Assembly: GCA_049999805.1 (NCBI GenBank)
Contig: JBNGIO010005971.1
Span: forward strand, 1-64,000
DNA length: 64,000 nt
Source of the DNA: Folioceros fuciformis
Taxonomy: Eukaryota
Reading direction: 5' to 3'
In this document: positions 2,680 to 17,300 of the stretch, piece after piece
How positions within the stretch are numbered: the first letter of the stretch is position 1
How the letters are laid out: each line of letters begins with the position of its first letter
Notes under the pieces: generated by a model
The model's input: only the letters and a program-made list of their open reading frames with translations
Databases searched by the model: none
Told to the model about the DNA's origin: nothing
Position numbers and translations under genes: made by a program

Positions 2680-3371
2680 ACGGTTGCTATTATGACGCTC
2701 ACAACTTGCTCTGATTCCTGAGAAGTCACACAGCATAGCACATGTCCCCTAGTAAGGTGCAAGCTGTGCACCGCAGCGGGCTGCTACATGAGAACTTCTA
2801 ACAATTGCCTAGCTAAGCCCTGCAGTCTGGTACTCATCTGTGCCGCCCTTGCTTCTGGTTGTTGCCCACGATCTCACTCCACACCGTCGGGGCCATGCCG
2901 CCCACGCTCGCAACCATCTTGTGCAATGATGCCCGAGCTGCCCAGTCGCTCATGTTCGCCATCATCCAGCACCACATGTTTGCCCTTCACGCCTCGCTCC
3001 TGAGCCCTAAACGAACCCACATGTTTCATGCTGGCCAATTCGGGCTGATTATCTAATAATCAGCATAACTACCTAGGTTAGTCTACCTAGGTTAGTTAAT
3101 TACCTAGCCTAATTGATCAACATAGCCTGACAGCTGTCGTGCTAAAACAGTGTTAGCTAAAAGTGCCCTTGACATTAGGCAAAAACGAAGAACCTAACCT
3201 CACACTCTCTGAGAAGGTTGCTGTGAACATGACTCTTAAGGTAGATGAGAAAATGAGCACAAACGAATGGAATCTTGGTAACCTTATCCCCCCCCAGTGT
3301 GGTGCTACAAGCCACCAAAACTGCAGGCAAGCTCTATCAGATGCCAAAGAAAAATCCAAGAGTTCACCTGA

Positions 3372-3540
3372 TCAGATGTTACTGGTGTCTCTAGCTCGGC
3401 AAAGAGGACAATACCACAAATTCTCTGGCACCTCAGTCTGTGGTGGCTGAAGACAAAATAGGTAGTAGCCTCCATTACAGCCATCACACAACAACATGAG
3501 CTCTGGATCATCAATCCTTCTACCCACCTGACATGGATAA
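3372..3540 (-). other. PHD finger at the integrase C-terminus (degenerate)
   Basis: CQVGRRIDDPELMLLCDGCNGGYYLFCLQPPQTEVPENLWYCPLC has C4HC3 PHD spacing with LLxCDxC, CLxPP, VP and WYCPxC. The 2nd Cys is changed to Gly and the His to Tyr. Confidence 0.88.
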
Positions 3541-4500
3541 TCAGCCAAAGGGACCCAATTTTCTGTGACCAGCGTGGAGTCCAACTTGGGTAGATGGCAT
3601 GGGGCACAGTTTTTCATGTGGTCTGTTGTTACCCGCCCATCAGACGCTTCCAGCAGCAACACTCCATTCCTACGCACCTCTCGCACACGTAACACATGCC
3701 TGCTAGTGCTAGGCTCCTAAGTGTCTTATGTTTGCCGTTGTAAATAGATATAGTCCCCTGGCTGAAATTTCCTGACCTTAGGATGGAAACTCCAACTCCT
3801 GGTATGAGCATACCTGAGTGTGTCACAATGTTGGCATCACATGTCTGAAAAAGGCTGCACGTTCTCCAATAGCCTTAGCCTAGGCTGCTGGGTTGTCCGA
3901 ACTTAACACCTCTTGCATCTGACGAGCAATGGCCACAGGTGGCACTAGCTCTCTCCCAAACAATAGGAAGTAAGGTGAGAAGTTGGCCAGTGATGCATGC
4001 TTGCTCATCCTGTAGCCCATAGCAATGTATGGCAAAGCCAAGTCCCAATCTGTCTTGGGCTTGGCGAGACACTGCTTCCTCAACGCCTGTTTGATGGTCT
4101 GCACCATCCTCTTAGCCAACCCGTCTGCTTGTGGGTGATCACGGCTTGTGCGCCGGTGGTCAATAAGTGCAACATCCAGCAGATCCTAAATCCACTCACC
4201 TCTGAATTCAGCTCCCTGGTTTGTGAGGCACTCAGCATTGCTCCCAAATCTGCTAAGCACATTGTGCCTCTGAATGAGGGTTGCTAAAAGAAGCCTTGAC
4301 CCTGTCACATTGAGCACATCTGGCCACCTCCTCGCGCACCTGAGTGAACACACCATGCCAGTGGAAATGTGGAAGGAGCAGACTGTAGGTGCGCTTCACT
4401 CCAAAATGGCCTAGATCTTCATGCACTCTATGGATAAGCCCTGCACGATCCTGTGGTGGAGGCACCAAACGTTCAGCCCTGTTGGCCAGCCTCCTCAGCA
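3541..4500 (-). pseudogene. Gypsy integrase with an internal deletion in the catalytic core
   Basis: The HHCC zinc domain (HEDLGHFG...CAQC) is followed almost immediately by the late core (DHRRTSRDHPQADGLAKRMVQTIK, DWDLALPYIAMGYR, SPYFLLFGRE). The first catalytic Asp region is not recognisable. Confidence 0.85.
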
Positions 4501-4749
4501 GGTACCCATCCCTCCATTCATAACGGGCTGCTCTCTACTGCACTCTCTCTTGCTTATGTACGTCCAAGATAACATCCATTTGCCCAGTCTTCACATACTG
4601 CAGTGTGGCTTCGTCACTCCACACATCCTTGTGGAGCTGAAAACGGCTATTAGCACAAACTTGTACCACACAAAGCATTGTCACCAAAGTTGCAGTATTA
4701 GGAGTTTCCTCCATGTCACTGTCCTGGCGAGCCTCAGTGTTGTCCTTGC

Positions 4750-6100
4750 TACTCTGTCAAGGGTTGCGTGACAATACATCTGCATTCTGGTGCTTGGTTC
4801 CAGGCCGATGGACCACCTCAAACTCATAGTCCTGAAGAATCATTGCCCACCTTGCGTGTTTCCCACTAAGCTTTGTGTTAGACATCAGCCATTTCAAGGG
4901 CTAATGGTCTGTTACCAAGGTAAACATTCGCCCGTACAGATAAGGATGAAAATGGCAGATAGCCCATTCAACTCCCCTTCATAGCTAGAGTAATTTGCTT
5001 CTGCCCTGTTGTTGCTTCTTGAAGCATAGACAATGACCCTCTCTTGACCTCCAGCATCCACTTGTGCTAGCACAGCTCCCAGCCCCAAAATGCTCTAGTC
5101 TGTATGGAAGACGAAAGGCTTGGTAAAATCAGGCCTGGCCATGACTGGCATTTGCATCAGCTTGCTCTTCAGGCTCTCAAACGCAGCTTGACAACTTTCT
5201 GTCCAATCCTAGGCTATCTCCTTGCGCAACAGGTCATTCAAGGGCTTAGCAATGCTACTAAAGGCCTGGACATAGACCCTATAGTAATTGCACAGCCCTA
5301 AGAGCAGACACATTAGTTGGAGCTTGGATCTGTTGGATGGCTTGCACCTTAGCAACATGTGGTGTTATGCCATCTGGCAAAATCCGATGCCCAAGATATG
5401 CAAGTGTGTCCATAGCAAATTCACACTTGGCTGGATGACATGTTAGCTGGGCCTTTTGCAACCTCCGAAACAAATCCTCCAGATGCATCAGGTGAGTGTC
5501 AAAGTCCACACTATGGACCAACACATCATCTATGTAACACAAAAGGTGAGGAGCCCCTGCTAGTACTTGTTCATGACTCTTTGGAAAGTTACTGGCGCAT
5601 TTTTGAACCCAAAAGGCATGTGACTAGCCACTCCCTTAGCTGGTGGACTCCATGAAATGCTATCTTGGGAATATACTCCTCTGCCACTGGCACGTGATTG
5701 AAGCCCTATCGCAGATCCAATGTAGAGAAGAACTTGGACTGTCCAATGCTGTAAAACAACTCCTCTGGTGTGGGCATAGGATACCTATCAAGAGCTGTGG
5801 TTGCATTGATGGGACGATAGTCCCCACACATTCGTTTTTCAGTCCAAAAGCCTTGGCTGTCCTTCTTAGGTGGAAGAATAGTGGCAGTTGCGTAATCCAA
5901 ACTAGAGGGCCTAATTAGCCCAGCCTTATACAACTCCTAGCAGTGACCTTCCATAGTTTCCCATTCAGACTGGCTCAACCTGTATCTGCGCCTATAGATA
6001 GGCTCAGTGGTGTTGAGCTTAATCCTGAATGTCATGACATTGCACCTCTTGAAATCCTCCATGCTAAAAGCAAAACAATTTGAGTACTGTAAAAGCAAAG
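4750..6100 (-). pseudogene. Gypsy reverse transcriptase and RNase H
   Basis: RT motifs PIYRRRYRLSQSE, GLIRPS, RMCGDYRPIN, DRYPMP, LDLR*GF, MPFG, YIDDVLVHS, KCEF, YLGHRI; RNase H motifs D*S, LGAVL, ASR, NADVLSR. Frameshifts near 5610, 5545 and 5285. Confidence 0.93.
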
Positions 6101-6399
6101 CCCGTATACACTGCCTCTGCCCTGAATCCAGCTGAGGACCCATGGTCCAACTAAAAGTCTCCGTAGTAGGTGAAGCTTTGGCAGCCGTTGACAGTCCTAG
6201 TCTTGGATCCAACTCTGAAGCAAAAAAAACAGGTTTGGGACACATGTGCTCCCCCCCGCCCCCCCCCCCCCCTTGCGTCGAGCTGGTAGGACCGGTAGCA
6301 AAAGCCAGGGAATGGCAAGTGAACAGCATCAGGATGACAAGAAAAAGTACTGGTATGGACAGTAGCGGATCCTAAGCCTCGAAGTCTGGTGAGCACCTA

Positions 6400-7355
6400 A
6401 AAGCCAAGCAAAGGCTAACCAGCCAAGTCAAAGCACTGACATCCATGGCACGGCCAAGTGCTGCAAACCTCTGAGCCCTGGAAGCCTTGGGTGCACCTGT
6501 GCTATGGGTCTGGAAACCCATCACATGCTCCCTTTCCTCCACTGTAGGTTCCTCCCACACCTTGGTATCTTCATTAAAAAGCATACCAGGACCGTTATTC
6601 CTATAAGCATAGGAGCCAGGATAGCTGACCACAGTGGGTAGAGTTCTCCTTGGCTGGCCAGGTGTGTTGGTAGGAAACCAAGGAGCTCTCTCCTTGGCTG
6701 CAACAGGCTTGGGAGTGTGATTGTCATCCAAGACATCTCGTAGGAGACGGGTGGGCTCCCGCTGCTGTTGTTGTAAAGCCAAGTGGAAGATAGGCAATGG
6801 GACCAAATTGGTCCAATAATTCTTGAGTCTGTGAGCATAGCTGCCCACCTGAGCTGCATCCATAGTAAAGGGAGGTCCAATGATGTGGATCATAGCCATG
6901 TCTTGGCGCAGCTGTGGCCGAGCATCTAATTGGGCTGGTGTGTTCCCCAGCACCTAAGCCACTTGAGGATGTTGATCCTGTAGCCAGTGAAGTACTTGCA
7001 CCAGATCCCTAAATAAGCCTGAACGGTTATCTTGCAACCCTGCTCCTTTCCCAGCTTGAGATAGGCCTTGGCACTCCCATACTGCAATTAGCAAATCCAC
7101 ATGCCCAAGGGCCTGAATGTGTGCTTGCTGGATGTACTGGATGTTTTGTGGGAGAGCATCAAACATGCTCTTACTGGTCTGCCTGGAAAATTGCTGGGGA
7201 AACTGCTGCCGCAGCAGGTGCACCGGATGTGCGGCAATGTGCCTAACAGCTGGACAGACATTACAATAGATGTACATGAAGACTGTGATGTCACACCTTA
7301 GCACTGCCTCAAGACCAGTGCATAGGCCCCCAAACAGCTCCACTAAGGTGGTACC
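6400..7355 (-). pseudogene. DNMT3-like C5 cytosine DNA methyltransferase domain inside the retrotransposon pol
   Basis: Motifs in canonical order: I LVELFGGLCTGL; IV DLLIAVWECQGLS; V GLQDNRSGLF; VI *VLGNT (ENx degenerate); VIII DAAQVGSYAHRLKNYWTN; IX EEREHVMGF; X RFAALGRAMDV. It is in the same frame as the downstream RT, separated only by TAG codons. Confidence 0.88.
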
Positions 7356-7839
7356 TTGTGGTGAAGGTTGCCTAGTAATCACAGACTGTTGAACAGGAGA
7401 AACATGTGCTCCCTCCCCTATGGCTGGGTCTGTGAAAGCTTTCTGCAGCACTTGCATAACACAAGTAACTGTCTCTTGAGCTTGCTGCATATGCTCCTTG
7501 CTGGCTATGGGAGGCTTAGAATGGCTGGACCCTAAGGCTTGAGAGAACAGCTGTGCTCCCAACACACCTTCCTTATGAGCATGTGAGAGGACGTCCTCGT
7601 CCTCTCCACACTTAGCTAGCCATACTTGAGAGTGAGGATCTGGTGGCAATAGGGGAACTGGCCCATCCCCCAAAGGCTGGATCTGCACCATCCAGGCCTA
7701 TCTTTCCACCAGTGTAGCCTCAGCTGCCTATGCAGCCCCATACAAATCCAAGGGCAGGTAGGCAATTCGCTTCCCCTCCTGCTGCTAATTTGGCCTAAAA
7801 AAGGCCTGTTCTATCCAGTTGTCAATTGAGACTCCTGAG

Positions 7840-8161
7840 GAAACAAAAATTCCCGTCCTAATAGAATGTCATAATTGGTGGCACCCTTGACTAGACAACG
7901 CACTGCCAAGCTCACCTAATCTGCTGTGTTGGGCTTCAAAGTGATCTTCACTGGTTGGACTGTTTCCCCTTTCACAAGCTCAATTGCCCTCGAAGCTGTA
8001 CGAATGTTCCATGGGGAAGGCTTCAACGCACTCCCTTCTAGCCGCAGCCTAGCAGCCAAAACCTTCCCTATGATCACTGGTTGTGCTCCTGTGTCCAATA
8101 ACACAGCTCTAGGCGCAAATCCATTTACTAGCACATGACTAGCCCGATTGTCCACAAGCAC
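7840..8161 (-). pseudogene. Retropepsin-like aspartic protease
   Basis: AVLLDTGAQPVIIG, then after one TAG (7916-7918) NYDILLGREFL. In frame with upstream ORF 8213..8899. Confidence 0.88.
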
Positions 8162-8212
8162 ACTGTTTACTGTAGCCTTGCGCCGGTTTGTGGGCTGTAC
8201 GATTGGTAGACC

Positions 8213-9160
8213 CTAGCTTTCCCAAGCCAATTGTGCAGCTTGCACAGTCTTGCCGAAAACAAGTGAATCCAGCCCTGTCTGACCATGATGACTGTTGCAA
8301 TCATCAGCCAATAGTACCTCAGCATGTGGAGACTGCAACACGGTGTCCATGCTGGCCTCTTCAATTCCCACACCTTGTAGGCTGAGCAAGGGTGCTGTGT
8401 ACACCCTCTTCAACAACTCCTTGTGCGTTAACACCATGGTCAGCAATCGAGCAGCCTGATCAGACTTGTGTGTGTCTAACCTGTGATGCTGGCTAGGAAC
8501 CTGGTCAGTCCTTTGCTCCACTTGATCCTCTTGAGGTAGATGATCTGACCCTCTCACTGGTATGCTGGACCCTAATGGCAGTTGCTGGAAAGACCTGGGC
8601 ATTATAGCCCTAGCTCCCTGCTGACATGTGGTGACAGCGGTCGTCTCTAGGGTATGGCCCGGCCAGGTTTGGGGTAACTGTACATCAGCTCTGGACAAGT
8701 CAACCTGCCCTAGGCCTTTGCCATGCAACGGCTCAGCCTTGGACTGCTTCTTGTGTGTTGCACAAGCCTCCATGACTGGTCCATAATCTTCACCAAGATC
8801 ATCTGATGTCCCAGTAGTTACAAGTTCCACACCATTGGCAGGCTTAGCAGCATTCAAGCTTGCCGCTAAAGTGCTGAACTGAGTAGTCAATGCAGCCATG
8901 GGCAGTCATTTTGTCTGCTTGAGTAGCAAGCTTCGGCTTAGCCTTGTCGCGCTTGACTTGGCTCTTACTGGCAGGATTTCCTTCTGTAGCTGCTCCTGCC
9001 GAGGCACTCCTTGAGCCAGTTGCTCCTGTTCCAGCAGTGGTAGTAGGTTGGGAGGTAGCACTAGAGTCTGCCCCTGTTTTCCAAGGTCGCCGCTCTGGGT
9101 ACTTTGAAAAACAAACTGCCTCTGTTGTGTGTGGTTTGCATCTTCTGCAACATTATAAAC
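8213..9160 (-). pseudogene. C-terminal part of gag (zinc-knuckle remnant plus linker)
   Basis: CRRCKPHTTEAVCFSKYPERRP near 9150-9085 resembles a CCHC knuckle. A low-complexity linker follows, and ORF 8213..8899 is in frame with the protease. Confidence 0.55.
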
Positions 9161-11363
9161 GAAAAGGGTTCTTGTGCAAACGGTGTTGCTCAATTGCAAT
9201 TGGTGAATTCTCGTGCATTTTGAAATGGTGAGAATCTTTGAGATTAGACTCCACAACTGTTGAGATGTCACCCCCGCCATGCTCAAAGGAGGTTAAAACA
9301 AGTTAGTTGAAGCAAGATGCAGAATCCCAAAACTAAGAGCACTATAACAAGGCTCTTAAACTCAAATAAAAAAGGAGAATTACAAAACAACACAATACAA
9401 GTGAAGAGGGAGTTAGACTGCCTCTACTAAGTGGGTTCATCCCTTCTTTTATGGACCTATGGGTGGCACTCTCATTTCGTGCCCAATATGGGATAAATGA
9501 CCCTACAATACTTCTTTTGCCCAACATAGCAAAGTCTAATAAGCTATATATATATATTAATCATAACCTTAATCACTCTTACCACTAATTAGTACAAACT
9601 CAATAAGCTGGATTAGCACTAATTAATATCAACATTAATCATGCTTAACAACAACAACTAGAAGGGTCCTTAATTATTCAGCCCCTTGCAGCTTTGTTGT
9701 GTTAACATTACAAACACCTACAAATCGACGCATCTACAACATTCGTAGGTCAAACCTACAAGTGAGACCTCTCCTCTTGACACAAATAAGAATATAGATA
9801 AGTGAAAATGGTTAAGCATCATTGACATTTCAGATATACCATACACGTAGGCATGGTTGACTTGTAAGCTGACCACCAAAGACCAAGGAAAACCAAACCA
9901 AAAGATACAAACAAAAAGAAAAGGAAAGCAAACCAAACCACTTGTTGGCAAAAACTCAAAACAGTAGCATAGAAGCCTGTCCCGTATCCCAAAATTTTTC
10001 ATCCCATAGTGGCACCAGAGTCACAGAAGAAGATGGAGATGCACCAAAGAGAAGATGGAGATGCACCAAAGAGAAGATTGGACACTGAGCAATGAGGGAA
10101 GAAGAGAATCAAGAGCAAAAATACACTACTCTAGGTCACAACAACTTAGTGGCAAGTGTGCATAGCATTGGGGAGGAGGGAAAGCAAGAGAGTGATCACG
10201 GTGCTAGAGAATTCATGATGGTGTGAAGAGGTGTGCAATCAAAAGTAACTAGTGCACTAGGCGTAAACCAACAACATCTGTCCTCCTCTCGCGAGAAGGT
10301 CTTGTAGTGGCATAAGAACTTATATGGCCATAATGGAATTATACATCCCAACCCCTTCTTAGACCTTTATGCTCCTCCAGTAGTTGTCCTTTAAGTGCTT
10401 TGCTATGTTGGTGTTAGAAGGCATACATCTGATTAGTCTATACTCTAACGCAGGCATTGAAGTATTCGAAGATGATATGAAGCCCAAAACTTGTTTATTT
10501 ATTTTGGATTGGAAAACTCCAACATAACAAACAAAAAGGAAGAAAAGAAAAGGAAAATAAAAAAGCAAGTACTCCAGTGAGGTGCGGCCAACCTTCTTTT
10601 CTCAAACCTTATTGGTTCCACACATAGTGAAAGATGTTTTCAGCTCTTGTTTTTGTCTTTTGTTGGGAAATTCCACATAAGTTGCATTCCATTGAGCCTC
10701 GGGTCGGGAGGCTTACCTTTACTTTGAGTAGTACGGATAATGATCACAAACTAGAAGTTGTAACCTCTCCTATGAGGTTTGTCTAATCCTTGTAAATCTA
10801 GCAAAAAAAAAAAAAAAAAAAATTTCTTTCCAGCTTGGTCGGAGTTTTGAAAAGACGAACTTTTTCAAGGACATCTCTTTGTGCAGCCCATTTTATATCA
10901 CACGTTGAAAACATCTTTGAGAACATTTGTCAACCTTCAAATGGGCTTCCCTTAGCTTAGCATCTTCTCCAAGGGTTTGGAAACCATCCTTCTTTCAAAC
11001 CCACAAGGGATATTTTGATATGAACCATAAATAAATTTTAATATCTCAGGTGATTTTTTAAATAATAGAATATATATATATATATATCCAAGTAATTTAC
11101 TTAGTTAAATAAAAGTCATAACCTATATATGAATTATGCTATTTTTATTAGGTGAAGGAGTTGTTAGATTGCACTCATCAAAACTTTCAAGCAATAATAA
11201 ATTAATCAAAATATAATTCAGACTAATTTATAATATTAGTTTAATTAAAAATTGAGGCTTGGAAATTTGTTTAAAATGGGCAAGCCTTTGTGGCTATCTT
11301 GCAAAATGAACAATATGTACTAAAAAACGTTGTAAAAACAGTACTTGTTGAAACTTGATTCCA

Positions 11364-14300
11364 ATGGCGGAAAAGGTAATTGTACCAAAGATCTTGAGGG
11401 ATGCTTTGTGTTGTGGACCATTTGATATTAGTTTTATTTTGTGAATCATTTATTCTTATCTTTATCTTAGTAGGGAAATGTTAAAAAGTTTGAGAACTTT
11501 TCGAATGTGGAAAGAGTTCATGAAAATTATGGAGTAGTTCAATGTTACTTCTCGTTCCAGAATGACAAGAAGGAAGATATTCCATGGAGGAGATACTCAA
11601 TAATGGATTCTCCTACTAGACACTATTCTATTCATGGACCCGATGAAGAATGGAGACTCTTCTATAAGCAAGGAGGACCTCCAAGAAAGAAAAAAAAAGA
11701 ATATGTATCTATTGAAAAAGTGCTTGCAGACAAAGCATGGCTACAGAAGAAAGCCTCAAAAAGGATTTCAAGAGATTTGGAGCTTAGTGCAGCCATCAAG
11801 AGACAGGTTGTTATACTTTCTCAACTTGGTGCATTACAAACTTTGTTTAACATGTGGGTTCTTTAATAAGCCACTTTAATGTTTTCCATTAGATCTTGGA
11901 GGATATTCACTACATGCAAACAAGACTATTACCTACTCAAAACCCACGTTATTGCACTCACCCACCAAAGACTTTCAAGGTGCAAATGGTTGTACTTTTG
12001 TAAAATGATAGTAAGCTTACTCATTAGTTGGGCAGCTTAAAAAGTTCTCTAGTAACAAATCTTGTGTGCAATAGGCATTGAGACTTTTTCAACTAAAGAT
12101 CACAGATGCTGGAGCTATGAGCTATCTCCTTGTAGATCCTCACTTAATTCAATTCATAGGATATGGTAGTGTGCCAGAATTTCTGAATTCCTAGTATGCC
12201 AATCCCATCCATCTTCTGCATGAGATTGCAATCATAATCAATCGAACAACAAGAATGGTTCACTAATACTTTAATTGAATGACTACAGAAATCGGAAAAA
12301 GTTATGTTGCCCAACTTTTATTGCTGAACATGAGTCCTTGGAGCCAACGGCTAAGGTTTGATTTTGAAGCAGTGACATAGTTTCACTAATTTATATGAAT
12401 AGAGTCAGAATCAAATTTGTAGAGACAACTAAGCTTGATTTATTTGAATGCAGGATCATTAAACCTCAAAGCAAGTCCTACTCTATGGGTTCAGATGAAT
12501 TACCATTCCAGGGAAAGACATTGGGTCCAGGAACTACTTGTTCATTCTATGTAACATTCAATCCTCGTAGTACACATGAAGGTGAAGATTACATATATGT
12601 GAAGACAGAGATGGATAAGATACGAATCAGACTTGTTGCTCACCAGCCTTTACCTGCTGTGTTCAGTTTCCCAAAGAAAATTGACCTAGGAAAGTGTTTG
12701 GTTGGACATGTTGCTTCTCACACCTTTGCCATCACAGCTATGGGTGCTTGTGCAGCATTTCGCCTGCTCTTAGAATATCGTTCATCTTCTCCTCCAGCAC
12801 AGCAGTTAAATCCGGGAGTCGATATGATTTATGTATGTCACAACATACTACTGTTCCCTCCTTTCGTTGCTTATCCTTGTTCTCTAGAGTTAGAAGCTGA
12901 GGAGACTGGAAATATCATTGTGTTGTTCAGACCTTCTGTAGCTGGAAAGTTCAATCATGTATTGAAGCTTGTTACGGATAGTGGCATTGAATGGAGGACC
13001 ACTGTATGCGGTTGTGCAGTAGACATGGTAGTAGATTTTGCACATCTGGATAAACGCCCATTTCGACCTGGAGAACTGGAGCTTGGGTTGTGGATCGGGG
13101 AAGCTACTGTTTCCTCCAGCACTGAACGAGAGATCAGCGTGATCAACAAATGCAGTGTGAGTTTGAGATATTTCTGGAAGGTAATGAACATGCACCCCAA
13201 GGACAAAGACAGGAATTGGGAAAGTGATACCATGGCACACACATACGAGAAGGAGGTTTTCTCCATGATTCCAAGCAATGGGATCTTGCTGCCAGGTGCT
13301 GAAGGGGCAACTACAATGAAGTTTGCACCCGCGGATGTAGTGGTGTACAAATCTCGTGCAGCTTTGTATGTGGATACTCGACACTGCAGCTCCATTCATC
13401 TTGAAGATGCCTATCGTGAAGTGCTGGATGTTCTGAACCAGGTGGAAACAAAGCTTAAGCTGACGAATGGACATACCTCGTTAACCAATATGAAAATGAA
13501 TTACACCGAGAATTACACTGGCCTCCGCCTATGTGCCATGGAATCTGCCAGGGGTGGGATATTCAAGGTACTGGAGGTTGATCTGATGGGTTCAGGTTCA
13601 CCATTCCATGTGCAGCTGTTTCCATCGGTGTTGTGCTCAGCAGGACTGTTAATGTTGGGCAAATACCATCAGCACCAGGTTTGGATCAGAAATAACGGAA
13701 TGACACCCATTTCCTTTGAATGGGATGTGATATGCAGGAGCAGCCCTTATTCAAATCTTGTGCAAGTGTCTCCCATCAGGGGTACAATTGGGGCCGTGTC
13801 AAGCCTCAAGATCTGTCTGACAATCCGAGCACGAAAAATTGGTGAGCTACGACGGAGTCTCTGCTGTGCGCTCCGAGATCCTAAAGGACTGTGCTATACT
13901 CTATCCTTGGAGGTTCAGGGTTTTGTGGAAGGTCCCGTAGTGACCATCGACGAACCGGTGCTCGATTTTGGGATAATACAGGTCCGAAGAATACACTCTG
14001 CTGACCCATGAGGCTGTCCTTTGACATACTGTGATTCATTTTTGATGATGTAGGCAGACCAGGTCCTCCTATACGTAATCATTTGGGTTGGTTGCAGGTG
14101 GCCTGTTTTTTTGGATGATTTCGCAACATTCACGGGTCTGTGATATGGCTTGTACAGGTGAAGAGGCAGGGCTACCTGAAGTTGAATGTAACAAATCATG
14201 GTAGTGTTGCAGCAGCTTTTCAGCTGTCTTTCACACTTCCACCTCCAGCAACGGTCACCGATGCACCCTTGGCTTCTCCTGGGTTTTGTAACTTTGTGAA

Positions 14301-17300
14301 ACTAGACGAGACCAATGGTATCGCAGACGAGAAGTTTAGGTCTGTCAGACAGGAGTTGCTGATGAAGGCAGGGGATGCTTTGCAGATGGGGGCCACATTG
14401 TTGCCCCACTTTGATCCTATGGGAGGTGAACCGGTGGCTACTCAAATAGTGAAGCATGCTGCTGTCAGGCCTTCAGAGGAACAACCACTATCATTTGAGC
14501 CATGGTCTGGCTTGTTACCACCTCAGAAAACGACGACGGTGGATGCCATTTTCAAGCCTGTTGTGTGTGGCAACTATCTGGCTACGGTTAGGTGTGTTGT
14601 AGCAGGTGGGCTTTCTCCTAGCCAGCATGTTGTGGCCACTGCCCGGGTCTTGGCTCCCAGAGCTTGTATTGTTCCATCACGAGTGGAGACTGGAACCATC
14701 TATGTTGATGTCATTGTCTCGAAGACCATCATACTTCGAAACATGTCAGAGTTACCTGTTTTCTTCTGTTGGTCTCTGGATGGCATTGGGGATGTGAAAG
14801 CTATTGATGTCCGCATCATACCACAGAAAGGGGAAGTGCCTCCATTGGAGGACTTGCAAATAGAGGTGCGGATGAACCCAAACATCCAAGGAGAGATGCA
14901 ATATATTGCTAGTTGTGATATACAGGATATGGATACCTCGCCGATTGGAGTGGTTATCAGTGGTTACATTTGTGATGTGTGCTGCAACTACTTTGTGACG
15001 AGGTTACCCACCACCAAACATTTGCAAAGCTTTGAAAGACGACCTCGCTACGATGGCAAGAAGGGCTGGGACCAGCGAGGGTGGACACGAGAGGCAGCTA
15101 CCTCGCATGACTCCCGGGCAGTTTTGCCGATCCCGTGCCTTGATTATGGGCGAAGATGTCCTCTGGGTATGGTTCAGTCCTTGAGGTTGAGCATCAGCAA
15201 CGAATCCGCTGTTAAAAGTAAAGTGAGTATACATGTTGGGAAGTATAAAGTGAAGCAGATGGAAGAGCCATTTGCACCGGAGGAAGTGCTAGTCCTCTCA
15301 CACCTATCTGGCAGATTAGGGTCCTTTCCCACAACTGATGTGGAAATTCGAGGTGGGCTCAAGGGAAGGTTCAAGAAGAGTCCAATCATAGGAACGTTTG
15401 ATGACTTCCATCAAGCGTACGCATCCAGTTCTGGATGGACAATGCTTTCAAGGCGAGTGGAGCGGAGCTTACAGGAGAGCCTTGTGGAGGACGGTTGTGG
15501 GGTTTGTTTCTTGGTATATCCTGCTTGCAAAGGAGCACTGAAACCATGGGGAGATTGGACGTGTGACGTATTATGCTTCAGTGTCTTGCCAGGGTTTTAC
15601 TCTGATCATCTCCATAGCAAGGTGTGTTCCTCGCAGCCTTTAGAGCTCAAGATTTATTGAGGAGGTGTTGAACAGGTGTGAAGCTTACCAACTCTCTTCC
15701 AACAATTTTGTTTCCCGGACAGAATCACTCAGCTTCTTGATGAGTAGCTTTTGTGGTTGCTCCTTGACTACTGATTGTTCATCTGTATCTCTCCTAACCG
15801 GAGGTCCTCATTCGTAACTCTATTGTTCCAGGTTGGTCCCTTGGACGTCGTGAAGATCCCCATAGAAATCGAAATCGTAGGGACTCCTCTGGTGATGAGG
15901 AGGAACTCCCTCGAGCCTGGCAGACTTTTCCACACGACAGAACAACTTGGACTGACTCTCACGTGGACTGCTATGCCATCCGGTTACCCTGTTTCATCCA
16001 AAGAGTTTCTGGTGGCCAATGTTAGTGCTTACGACATGGAGGTCAGCTGGCAGTTAAGGACACCGGCAGCTTCCTGGGACCTGGCCCAGATCGACATGCA
16101 CACGCAAGAGGCGGAGGACAAGCTGCTGCACGTGATTTTGGACGACTACTTGGATCAGACGGATGGAACCGTTCGCGTGTGCCTCGAATGTCAGACAGTG
16201 GGAGACATGGCCTGCTTCGCAGAATCTCTGGACCACATCTGTAAAATGGATGACTACTCAGACAATGCATGGATCTCTGCCATTTTCAACTTTGTGCCTG
16301 CCACAAAGGTTCGAGTCGAATTGCGTGAGCACATCGAAGCTCAAGGAGGTGCAGGAAGGGTGCACGTCACCTTGGACGAGAGGTGTGCGGATGCTGACGC
16401 AAGCTGTCCTTTCGCCATTACTCCATGCAAGCAAGTAAGCAACACCATCTCTTCCTCACCAAGAACACCGCAGCACATGTTGCACATGCATTCCTGATGT
16501 CTCTTCGTGTGGGCTCCGTCTTGCCGGGAGCTCAGATTGTGCCCAGCAAAGGCGTGACCAGATTCACAGTCACTTTTTTCTCTGTGTTGGCCTCCGATTA
16601 CGCCACCGTGTTCGTGGGACAAAGCAGGTTCACAGGCACAGACGTGGAGCCTGAGACGTGTGCAGAGATTACAGATTCATCAAGCCAATGCTCAGGTTCA
16701 AGCGGTGTTCTCGTTCTCGCCGAAGAGGCAGATCCAAACCTGTATCCGCTGCCTCCCAAGGCATCAGCTACCAAGATAGATGATGCTCTTAGGGCCCGAA
16801 GACCCAGGCCATTGAGGGTGTTTGCAGGCGGCACCATACTCGTCCCAAGGTGAGCTGTTCCCTATCCCATCCACGTTCCTCTTTCTTTCCACGTTGAAAA
16901 GGAGCAAGTTCTGAGGCAAGCAGCGGTTCCCTCAGGTTGGTGACGAGCGTGGATGACAGCCTGCACTTCCAGTACCCCATGACAGGACCCAACGACGGCA
17001 ACCTGTACATGGTGTCAGCACTGCTTCTCACAAATCCATACCGCTGCAGCCTTGCCTTCACCGTCACTGCTACACCCCCGTTCCACATTATCGGACCTCT
17101 ACGAGCCGGCATTTTCCAGCCAGTGGAACACGGCGAGGCTATGCAGCTGCTGCCCGTTCTTAAGGACCAGACCAAGCTCCAGTCCCTTAAATTCAACCTG
17201 CGCGCTGGCCGCACGCTTCAGCTCATCATGCGTTTCGACATACCGGAAGTGCCTCTGCCTCCGCCCGAGCCCACCGTTCCAGAACCGGTCCCAGCACCCA

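Follow-up and report, generated by a model that had tools for sequence, protein, structure and literature searches.

What does a PHD finger do at the tail of a Gypsy integrase when the same polyprotein also carries a DNMT3-type methyltransferase? The question is raised by an element on the minus strand of a 64,000-nucleotide stretch of Folioceros fuciformis DNA (contig JBNGIO010005971.1, positions 1 to 64,000), the whole of which is called the window here. The element belongs to the KnitGypsy-Dnmt3 type of Ty3/Gypsy elements, and this copy of it is dead. An earlier note, made from the window alone, had proposed that its integrase ends in a C4HC3 PHD finger, and this was confirmed: the minus-strand frame at 3372-3716 (stop to stop) matched Pfam PHD (PF00628) with 39.6 bits (E 5e-10; cut-off 24 bits). 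The interval given for the finger, 3372..3695, does hold it, but the finger covers only 3399-3533, and the rest is the second half of the SH3-like tail. The parts of the window copy are as follows.

3399..3533, minus strand: PHD finger (C4HC3, first to last Cys), from the Pfam match and the ligand table
3534..3836, minus strand: SH3-like integrase C-terminal module (GPY/F position) and linker to the PHD, by tblastn to amino acids 2229-2381 of the intact frame
3832..4500, minus strand: integrase zinc-binding domain and DDE core, broken, by sequence comparison with the intact frame
4500..5940, minus strand: reverse transcriptase (RT; YIDD kept) and RNase H, interrupted by stops and frame changes (RVT_1, 39.9 bits)
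6396..7382, minus strand: DNMT3-type cytosine methyltransferase domain, broken (PF00145, 25.3 bits)
7838..9116, minus strand: aspartic protease with its upstream linker (DNA 78% and 73% like that of copy L063, as far as 9116)
3288..3295, minus strand: G-run polypurine tract directly before repeat B, read from the sequence
3135..3287, minus strand: repeat B1, ending CACGACA (83% like the second B of L036)
3133..3134, minus strand: two-base spacer of the internal B-A joint (CA-GC-TG), the same joint being found in other subfamilies and in family 2
2692..3132, minus strand: start of repeat A2 (begins TGTC), truncated (78-84% match to L005, L036 and L098, ending at about 2690)

Exactly two zinc ligands are mutated in the window copy, as had been claimed. 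The ligand series reads C-G-C-C-Y-C-C-C, with six of the eight kept, ligand 2 changed to Gly and ligand 5 to Tyr. Between the finger and the integrase core lie a stop (3717-3719) and a shift of frame near 3832-3836, which sever the two, and the GPY/F motif itself is missing from the SH3-like module when it is compared with a chromovirus tail. In the integrase, a deletion at 4267/4268 takes out the region of the first catalytic Asp, and the second Asp is replaced by Asn. The DNMT3-type domain contains a stop, and the Glu of its motif VI is changed to Gly. The gag and the 5' repeat are missing (amino acids 1-488 of the intact frame were unmatched by tblastn), and no B2 repeat was found within the window. 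The internal B-A joint is visible at 3132-3141 and is likely the attachment joint of the integrase. In a check for expression, no RNA data set was listed among those containing the sequence; the single one listed also covers the unique flank and is probably the source DNA.

The window also contains sequences that do not belong to the element. A different repeat at 9258-9650, located where gag should be, is 94% like an insertion inside L062 and also resembles a flank of L077; it is probably the LTR of another family. The repeat at 561-1758 is 69-84% like a region beside a decayed chromodomain element (L116, L127) and L067, and short 38-bp and 33-bp tandem copies lie within it at 1486-1634. A host gene with repeated CFAP65/HYDIN/DLEC1 Ig-like domains and long exons is present on the plus strand at 12368-16494; such a gene suggests a plant lineage that has flagellated cells.

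Intact copies exist elsewhere in the genome. L031 is a single frame of 2386 codons in the order Gag, protease, DNMT3, RT, RNase H, integrase, SH3-like tail and PHD, and all eight PHD ligands are intact. Pfam identified protease, DNA_methylase (21.3 bits, just below the cut-off of 22), RVT_1, RT_RNaseH, Integrase_H2C2, rve and the terminal PHD in it, and no Chromo; zinc knuckles could be read off the gag sequence. The order protease, RT, RNase H, integrase is that of Ty3/Gypsy elements. The intact integrase folds like the PFV and Ty3 integrases with the DDE triad present, and its SH3-like module is predicted to form five short strands in the structure model. A second family (L034, L051, L054), with DNMTs about 40% identical, has the same domain order as L031. 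In L034 the rve and PHD domains share one frame, as they do in L031, and the proposal thereby passed a test that the note itself had set, namely that the finger be in frame with the integrase in intact copies. At least 147 places in the genome match the PHD-bearing tail (of 163 candidates, 150 were scored), and some of the weak matches are host PHD genes; for the methylase the count is at least 131 (128 of 186 candidates scored). All 13 retrieved copies spanning protease to RT contained the DNMT.

Two other kinds of element were considered and rejected. L033, L034 and L057 looked like a DNMT-integrase-PHD family without RT, but their breakpoints differ and L051 and L054 of the same family have RT, so the losses are deletions or assembly errors. 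Candidate loci for an element with both PHD and chromodomain were host CHD remodeller genes. In family 2 (L034:3085-3279, L033), an acidic, Pro-rich extension of about 65-80 amino acids follows the PHD, which family 1 does not have.

The finger is kept outside the window copy. All eight ligands are present in 20 of the 30 copies of this genome that cover every ligand position, most of them decayed (35 loci were used, the best 30 tail matches plus five), and in 69 of the 70 database relatives covering the finger; the intact copy and the same 69/70 relatives also have the Trp two before Cys7. The zinc ligands, whose absence from the consensus would have spoken against the proposal, are therefore present. 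In conservation the PHD equals the catalytic core of the integrase. With the other subfamilies pooled, the nonsynonymous difference to L031 was 0.18 for the PHD (14 copies), 0.15 for the integrase core (9 copies) and 0.16 for the tail (14 copies), against 0.38-0.46 for linkers and 0.28 for the DNMT (6 copies, one probably of another family). Only pN is given because synonymous sites were saturated. The PHD is a real, conserved domain and is probably functional.

The likely ligand can be read from related structures. In the PDB search the solved structures nearest to the intact finger were PHD1 of KDM5D, lid and KDM5A, and WSTF, followed by BAZ2B and UHRF1/2. PHD1 of KDM5B binds unmodified H3, with L325, P347 and W351 holding Ala1, D328 holding Arg2, and D308, four residues before Cys1, holding unmethylated Lys4 (PMC4225485). 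The element finger shares with PHD1 of KDM5A/B/D (PDB 7klo/7klr, 2mny/2mnz, 2e6r; PMC4225485) the spacing, the Leu-Leu-Cys-Asp and Pro-x-x-x-Trp pocket, and the lack of a cage Trp. At the KDM5B-equivalent contact positions the relatives carry Asp in 66/70, Leu in 59/70, Pro in 67/70 and Trp or Phe in 70/70. PHD fingers that read K4me3 carry a Trp two before the His; at this position Gly was found in 65/70 relatives and Trp in none of the 70. The features are those of the H3K4me0 type (KDM5 PHD1 class), with an Ala1 pocket (Leu, Pro, Trp), an Arg2-binding Asp and no cage Trp. The finger therefore likely binds the free H3 end, and it lacks a K4me3 pocket. In contrast to the KDM5 fingers, no acidic residue was matched four before Cys1, the position of the K4 sensor. 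An Asp stands three before Cys1, one residue nearer than D308, in 27/30 own copies and 26/70 database relatives, and the positions of E321 and G349 of KDM5B differ in the own family. Because of these differences the degree of K4 sensing is uncertain. In one screen, H3-tail binding was seen in only 31 of 123 human PHDs, PHD1 of KDM5A/B included (PMC6979384).

The PHD occupies the slot of the chromodomain, as the earlier note had supposed. In L123, a chromovirus of the same genome, the chromodomain lies about 25 residues past the SH3-like module, and the PHD of the element begins about 21 residues past the equivalent module. Chromoviruses (Tcn1, Chlamyvir and others; PMC6317226, PMC6673714) likewise have a reader domain after the GPY/F-SH3 module of the integrase, whereas the element has no chromodomain and no GPY/F motif, its repeats are split, and its integrase is nearer to non-chromoviral families. 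It is tempting to think that a chromovirus swapped its chromodomain for a PHD, since the position is the same and the element shows a self-priming signal (described below) like that of the Tcn1/Tf1 chromoviruses (PMC6317226). However, the integrase-core profile of the clade scored 98-123 bits with the non-chromoviral Gypsy families of this genome and 70 with the chromovirus, and the RNase H profile scored 75-96 (full-length hits) and 51, a weak comparison with one chromovirus and no root. Because both domains score higher with non-chromoviral Gypsy, descent from a chromovirus is unsupported; the element probably does not come from one, and such a swap seems quite unlikely. That a host PHD exon was caught by chance at the end of the element, or joined to it in an assembly chimaera, is hardly credible: host KDM5 and CHD genes do score well on the finger profile, but intact copies of two families hold the PHD in frame, which refutes it, the genome matches number 147, and the PHD also occurs in algal relatives and is conserved like the catalytic core.

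PHD and DNMT3 occur together in a clade whose hosts include green algae. The tail search found 74 polyproteins, with the PHD in 71 (partly by construction), the DNMT in 69 and both in 66. In the reverse search with the DNMT, 63 polyproteins were found, and the PHD was present in 46 of the 51 that reach the tail, the other 12 being too short to judge. Named hosts are Cymbomonas, Haematococcus, Chlamydomonas eustigma, Monoraphidium, Tetradesmus, Hariotina and Closterium. The integrase tree (122 sequences, rooted on one chromovirus, made from proteins with a full core) placed DNMT-less, PHD-bearing elements at two separate places inside DNMT-bearing groups. The DNMT lies upstream of RT in this genome's clade, including both own families (support 0.97); in most relatives its place is between RNase H and the integrase. 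P0075, P0117 and P0126 of Closterium carry the DNMT but stop after the tail and have no PHD, which shows that such elements can do without the finger. The PHD stays with the integrase, and the DNMT moves or is lost, twice with the PHD kept.

The methylase is of the DNMT3 type. All 29 PDB matches of the intact domain were DNMT3A/B/C, and its motifs stand in the standard, non-permuted order. Motifs I, VI (Glu-Asn; kept in 65/69 relatives) and VIII (Arg-x-Arg) and the catalytic Cys are kept. Motif IV reads W-E-C here versus P-C; 29/69 relatives share this Glu next to the Cys, and 30 have Pro there. In young copies, 0.2-3.2% different from L031, C-to-T changes were found at 49/1701 CG, 118/4267 CHG and 66/12542 CHH sites, a rate that is equal for CG and CHG and much lower for CHH. 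Host CG/CHG silencing accounts for this pattern, so self-marking is not needed to explain it, and the C-to-T decay of these copies held no methylation signature beyond it.

Around 22 loci of the young family (24 flanks), retroelement Pfam matches were found at six loci and host-gene matches at none. The scan took the six longest frames of at least 70 amino acids per kb, 73 in total, and had no genomic background, so the counts are compatible with targeting and are not proof of it. At L038:1025-1400, a full copy has entered a 27-bp tandem array with a 4-bp duplication.

Taken together, we give a probability of about 0.55 to the reading, drawn from comparison of sequences, that the PHD finger tethers integration as a chromodomain does and that the DNMT3 is a separate module, in an element of the KnitGypsy-Dnmt3 type. 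The PHD would remain on the integrase after proteolysis and would tether the integration complex to nucleosomes by binding Ala1 and Arg2 at the free N-terminus of H3. Since the finger has no K4me3 pocket, insertion would be biased from H3K4me3 promoters toward silent, repeat-rich DNA; the finger would thus do the chromodomain's job through another mark. The DNMT3 most likely would act on the element's own cDNA inside the particle. It is also possible, though on the unlikely side, that the finger is functional without choosing sites; it would then keep the complex on bulk chromatin, bind to a chromatin protein of the host or stabilise the integrase. Binding unmodified H3 ends would confer little specificity, since such ends are abundant; the K4-sensing residue is out of register; and selection after insertion, which can mimic targeting (PMC6673714), would give the same flank picture. 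Against this, the Ala1- and Arg2-binding surface is kept across the clade beyond the zinc core, the position equals a known targeting slot, and Gypsy-7a_cRei, a PHD-bearing Gypsy of Chlamydomonas, is reported to insert between genes 2.6 times above chance (bioRxiv 2022.06.16.496473).

The note had gone further, with a reader and a writer coupled as the ADD and catalytic domains are in animal DNMT3, and of this the co-occurrence stood and the coupling did not. In such a machine the complex would dock on K4-unmethylated chromatin and methylate the new copy or its flanks. The ADD reads the unmodified H3 end, which is also the predicted ligand of the PHD, and both domains are found together in most polyproteins of either search. 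In most relatives the DNMT is directly upstream of the integrase, so that a DNMT-integrase-PHD product is possible, and the DNMT motifs, the motif IV Cys among them, are kept. However, each domain is lost independently of the other and the position of the DNMT varies, which leaves an ADD-like unit unsupported; in this genome's clade RT and RNase H separate the two; and young copies carry only the host-like CG/CHG signature. The DNMT of KnitGypsy-Dnmt3 also did not methylate yeast DNA, a result called inconclusive by its authors (PMC5890265). We consider the coupled reading unlikely, and the PHD and DNMT3 look like two independent tools, not parts of a single machine.

The ends of the element are unusual. 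Copies have the structure A1-coding-B1-NN-A2-B2, starting with TGTCGTG and ending with CACGACA (TG..CA ends), and four copies end at B1. Two identical full LTRs were absent; copies were either A-coding-B-A-B or ended at B. A 4-bp target duplication was found in all three insertions with both flanks, two of which are solo A-B units. The spacer of the internal joint is two bases in 7/7 young-family cases, and in 13 copies A2 and B2 meet at a ragged joint. In 35/39 loci, a G-run or G-rich tract lies within 1.5 kb downstream of the PHD. At seven of nine 5' ends, 14-21 nt of the sequence after A1 pair perfectly with a site inside A, where 5000 shuffles gave no more than 12, and this pairing shows A-T/G-C covariation. 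When 5' and 3' ends on different contigs were paired by their 4-bp flanks, three matches were obtained versus an estimated 0.4 or so expected, which is suggestive only. A DIRS/Ngaro identity (tyrosine recombinase, no target duplication) was rejected, as a DDE integrase and 4-bp duplications were found.

The simplest reading of these ends would be self-priming, a cDNA with B-A repeats and a circle opened at the joint. The minus strand would be self-primed in a Tf1-like manner and the plus strand primed from the G-run; the cDNA with B-A terminal repeats would be circularised, and the circle would be opened by the DDE integrase at the internal CA-NN-TG joint. Random opening of a two-joint circle should give some permuted A-B-A 5' ends, and none was seen among nine 5' ends; asymmetric cutting or assembly collapse could account for their absence. 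The end structure suggests a DDE integrase that uses a circle joint, a route which to our knowledge is generally considered non-productive for retroviral integrases.

Each part of the element is already known in such elements, namely the integrase PHD and the DNMT3. The closest description is KnitGypsy-Dnmt3 of Klebsormidium nitens (de Mendoza et al. 2018, PMC5890265), which shares a non-permuted Dnmt3 in the Gypsy Pol in frame with RT and RNase H, a DIRS-like repeat arrangement and a green-lineage host; the likeness is drawn from the published description, and no Klebsormidium-named protein was among the relatives found by the tail and DNMT searches. The text of that paper gives neither a mechanism for the repeats nor the position of the DNMT, and the word PHD is absent from it and from three supplement files, although the domain map in Fig. 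4c may show one. Retroelements uniting a reader with a writer have already been published as EpiLTRs (bioRxiv 10.64898/2026.05.21.726589), LTR retrotransposons that join a histone reader with DNA methyltransferases. One of their hosts, Cymbomonas, also harbours the clade studied here. In contrast to the element, the reader of EpiLTRs is a chromodomain and their DNMT is sister to DNMT4 and accompanied by DAM, and they are stated to be distinct from streptophyte Gypsy-DNMT3 (same preprint). An EpiLTR identity (chromodomain, DAM and DNMT4-like DNMT) was rejected, as family 1 has a PHD, a DNMT3 and no second methylase.

Other PHD-bearing elements differ in more respects. Gypsy-7a_cRei and, as cited there, REM1 of Chlamydomonas reinhardtii (bioRxiv 2022.06.16.496473) carry a PHD in Gag-Pol that is proposed to steer insertion, but no DNMT is listed and they have two LTRs; the order in the legend is RH, PHD, INT, so the PHD may not be a tail. 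The DNA transposon Ginger1-9_HM (PMC2836005) has a PHD at the C-terminus of a Gypsy-like integrase, as here, but differs in its inverted repeats and Ulp1 and in having neither RT nor DNMT. PHDs in retrotransposons have been called widespread (PMC6673714) and PHD-TE fusions common (bioRxiv 2021.11.30.470311). No published DNMT3 Gypsy with a tail PHD was found in a search that reached few subscription papers and not Repbase; the word PHD is absent from the text of four plant or Gypsy LTR surveys, and no paper was found that links a PHD with the Selaginella or Chlamydomonas chromodomain elements. The finger would add a second reader besides the chromodomain to the chromatin choice of plant-lineage retrotransposons, with the specific prediction of free H3 end and no K4me3 pocket. 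Gypsy-DNMT3 is widened from one charophyte to a clade, in which natural losses of either module allow reader and writer to be studied separately.

A wider synthesis is doubtful as a whole and is put forward tentatively. An unnamed Gypsy clade, from prasinophytes and chlorophytes to streptophytes, may find K4-unmethylated nucleosomes with a KDM5-like PHD, methylate its own cDNA with the DNMT3 (joined in many algae by a second, amino-methyltransferase-like domain behind the PHD), self-prime, and integrate from a circle opened at the internal CA-NN-TG joint, and would then be self-targeting and self-marking with a non-standard substrate.

Many algal-type relatives (P0003, P0001, P0046, P0087, P0056 and others) have about 330-360 more amino acids after the PHD. 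Two parts can be told apart in this region, a small segment resembling a beta-barrel (by eye Tudor/SH3-like) and a domain like a Rossmann methyltransferase (DPW-G-G, VVTSPW). Pfam was silent here, and the Atlas pointed to phage clusters (0.95) in which 14% of the members carry N6_Mtase. It is a possible second writer and is absent in family 1 of this genome. P0001, P0014, P0046 and P0088 have precomputed matches to PF01585, which we take to be the G-patch domain.
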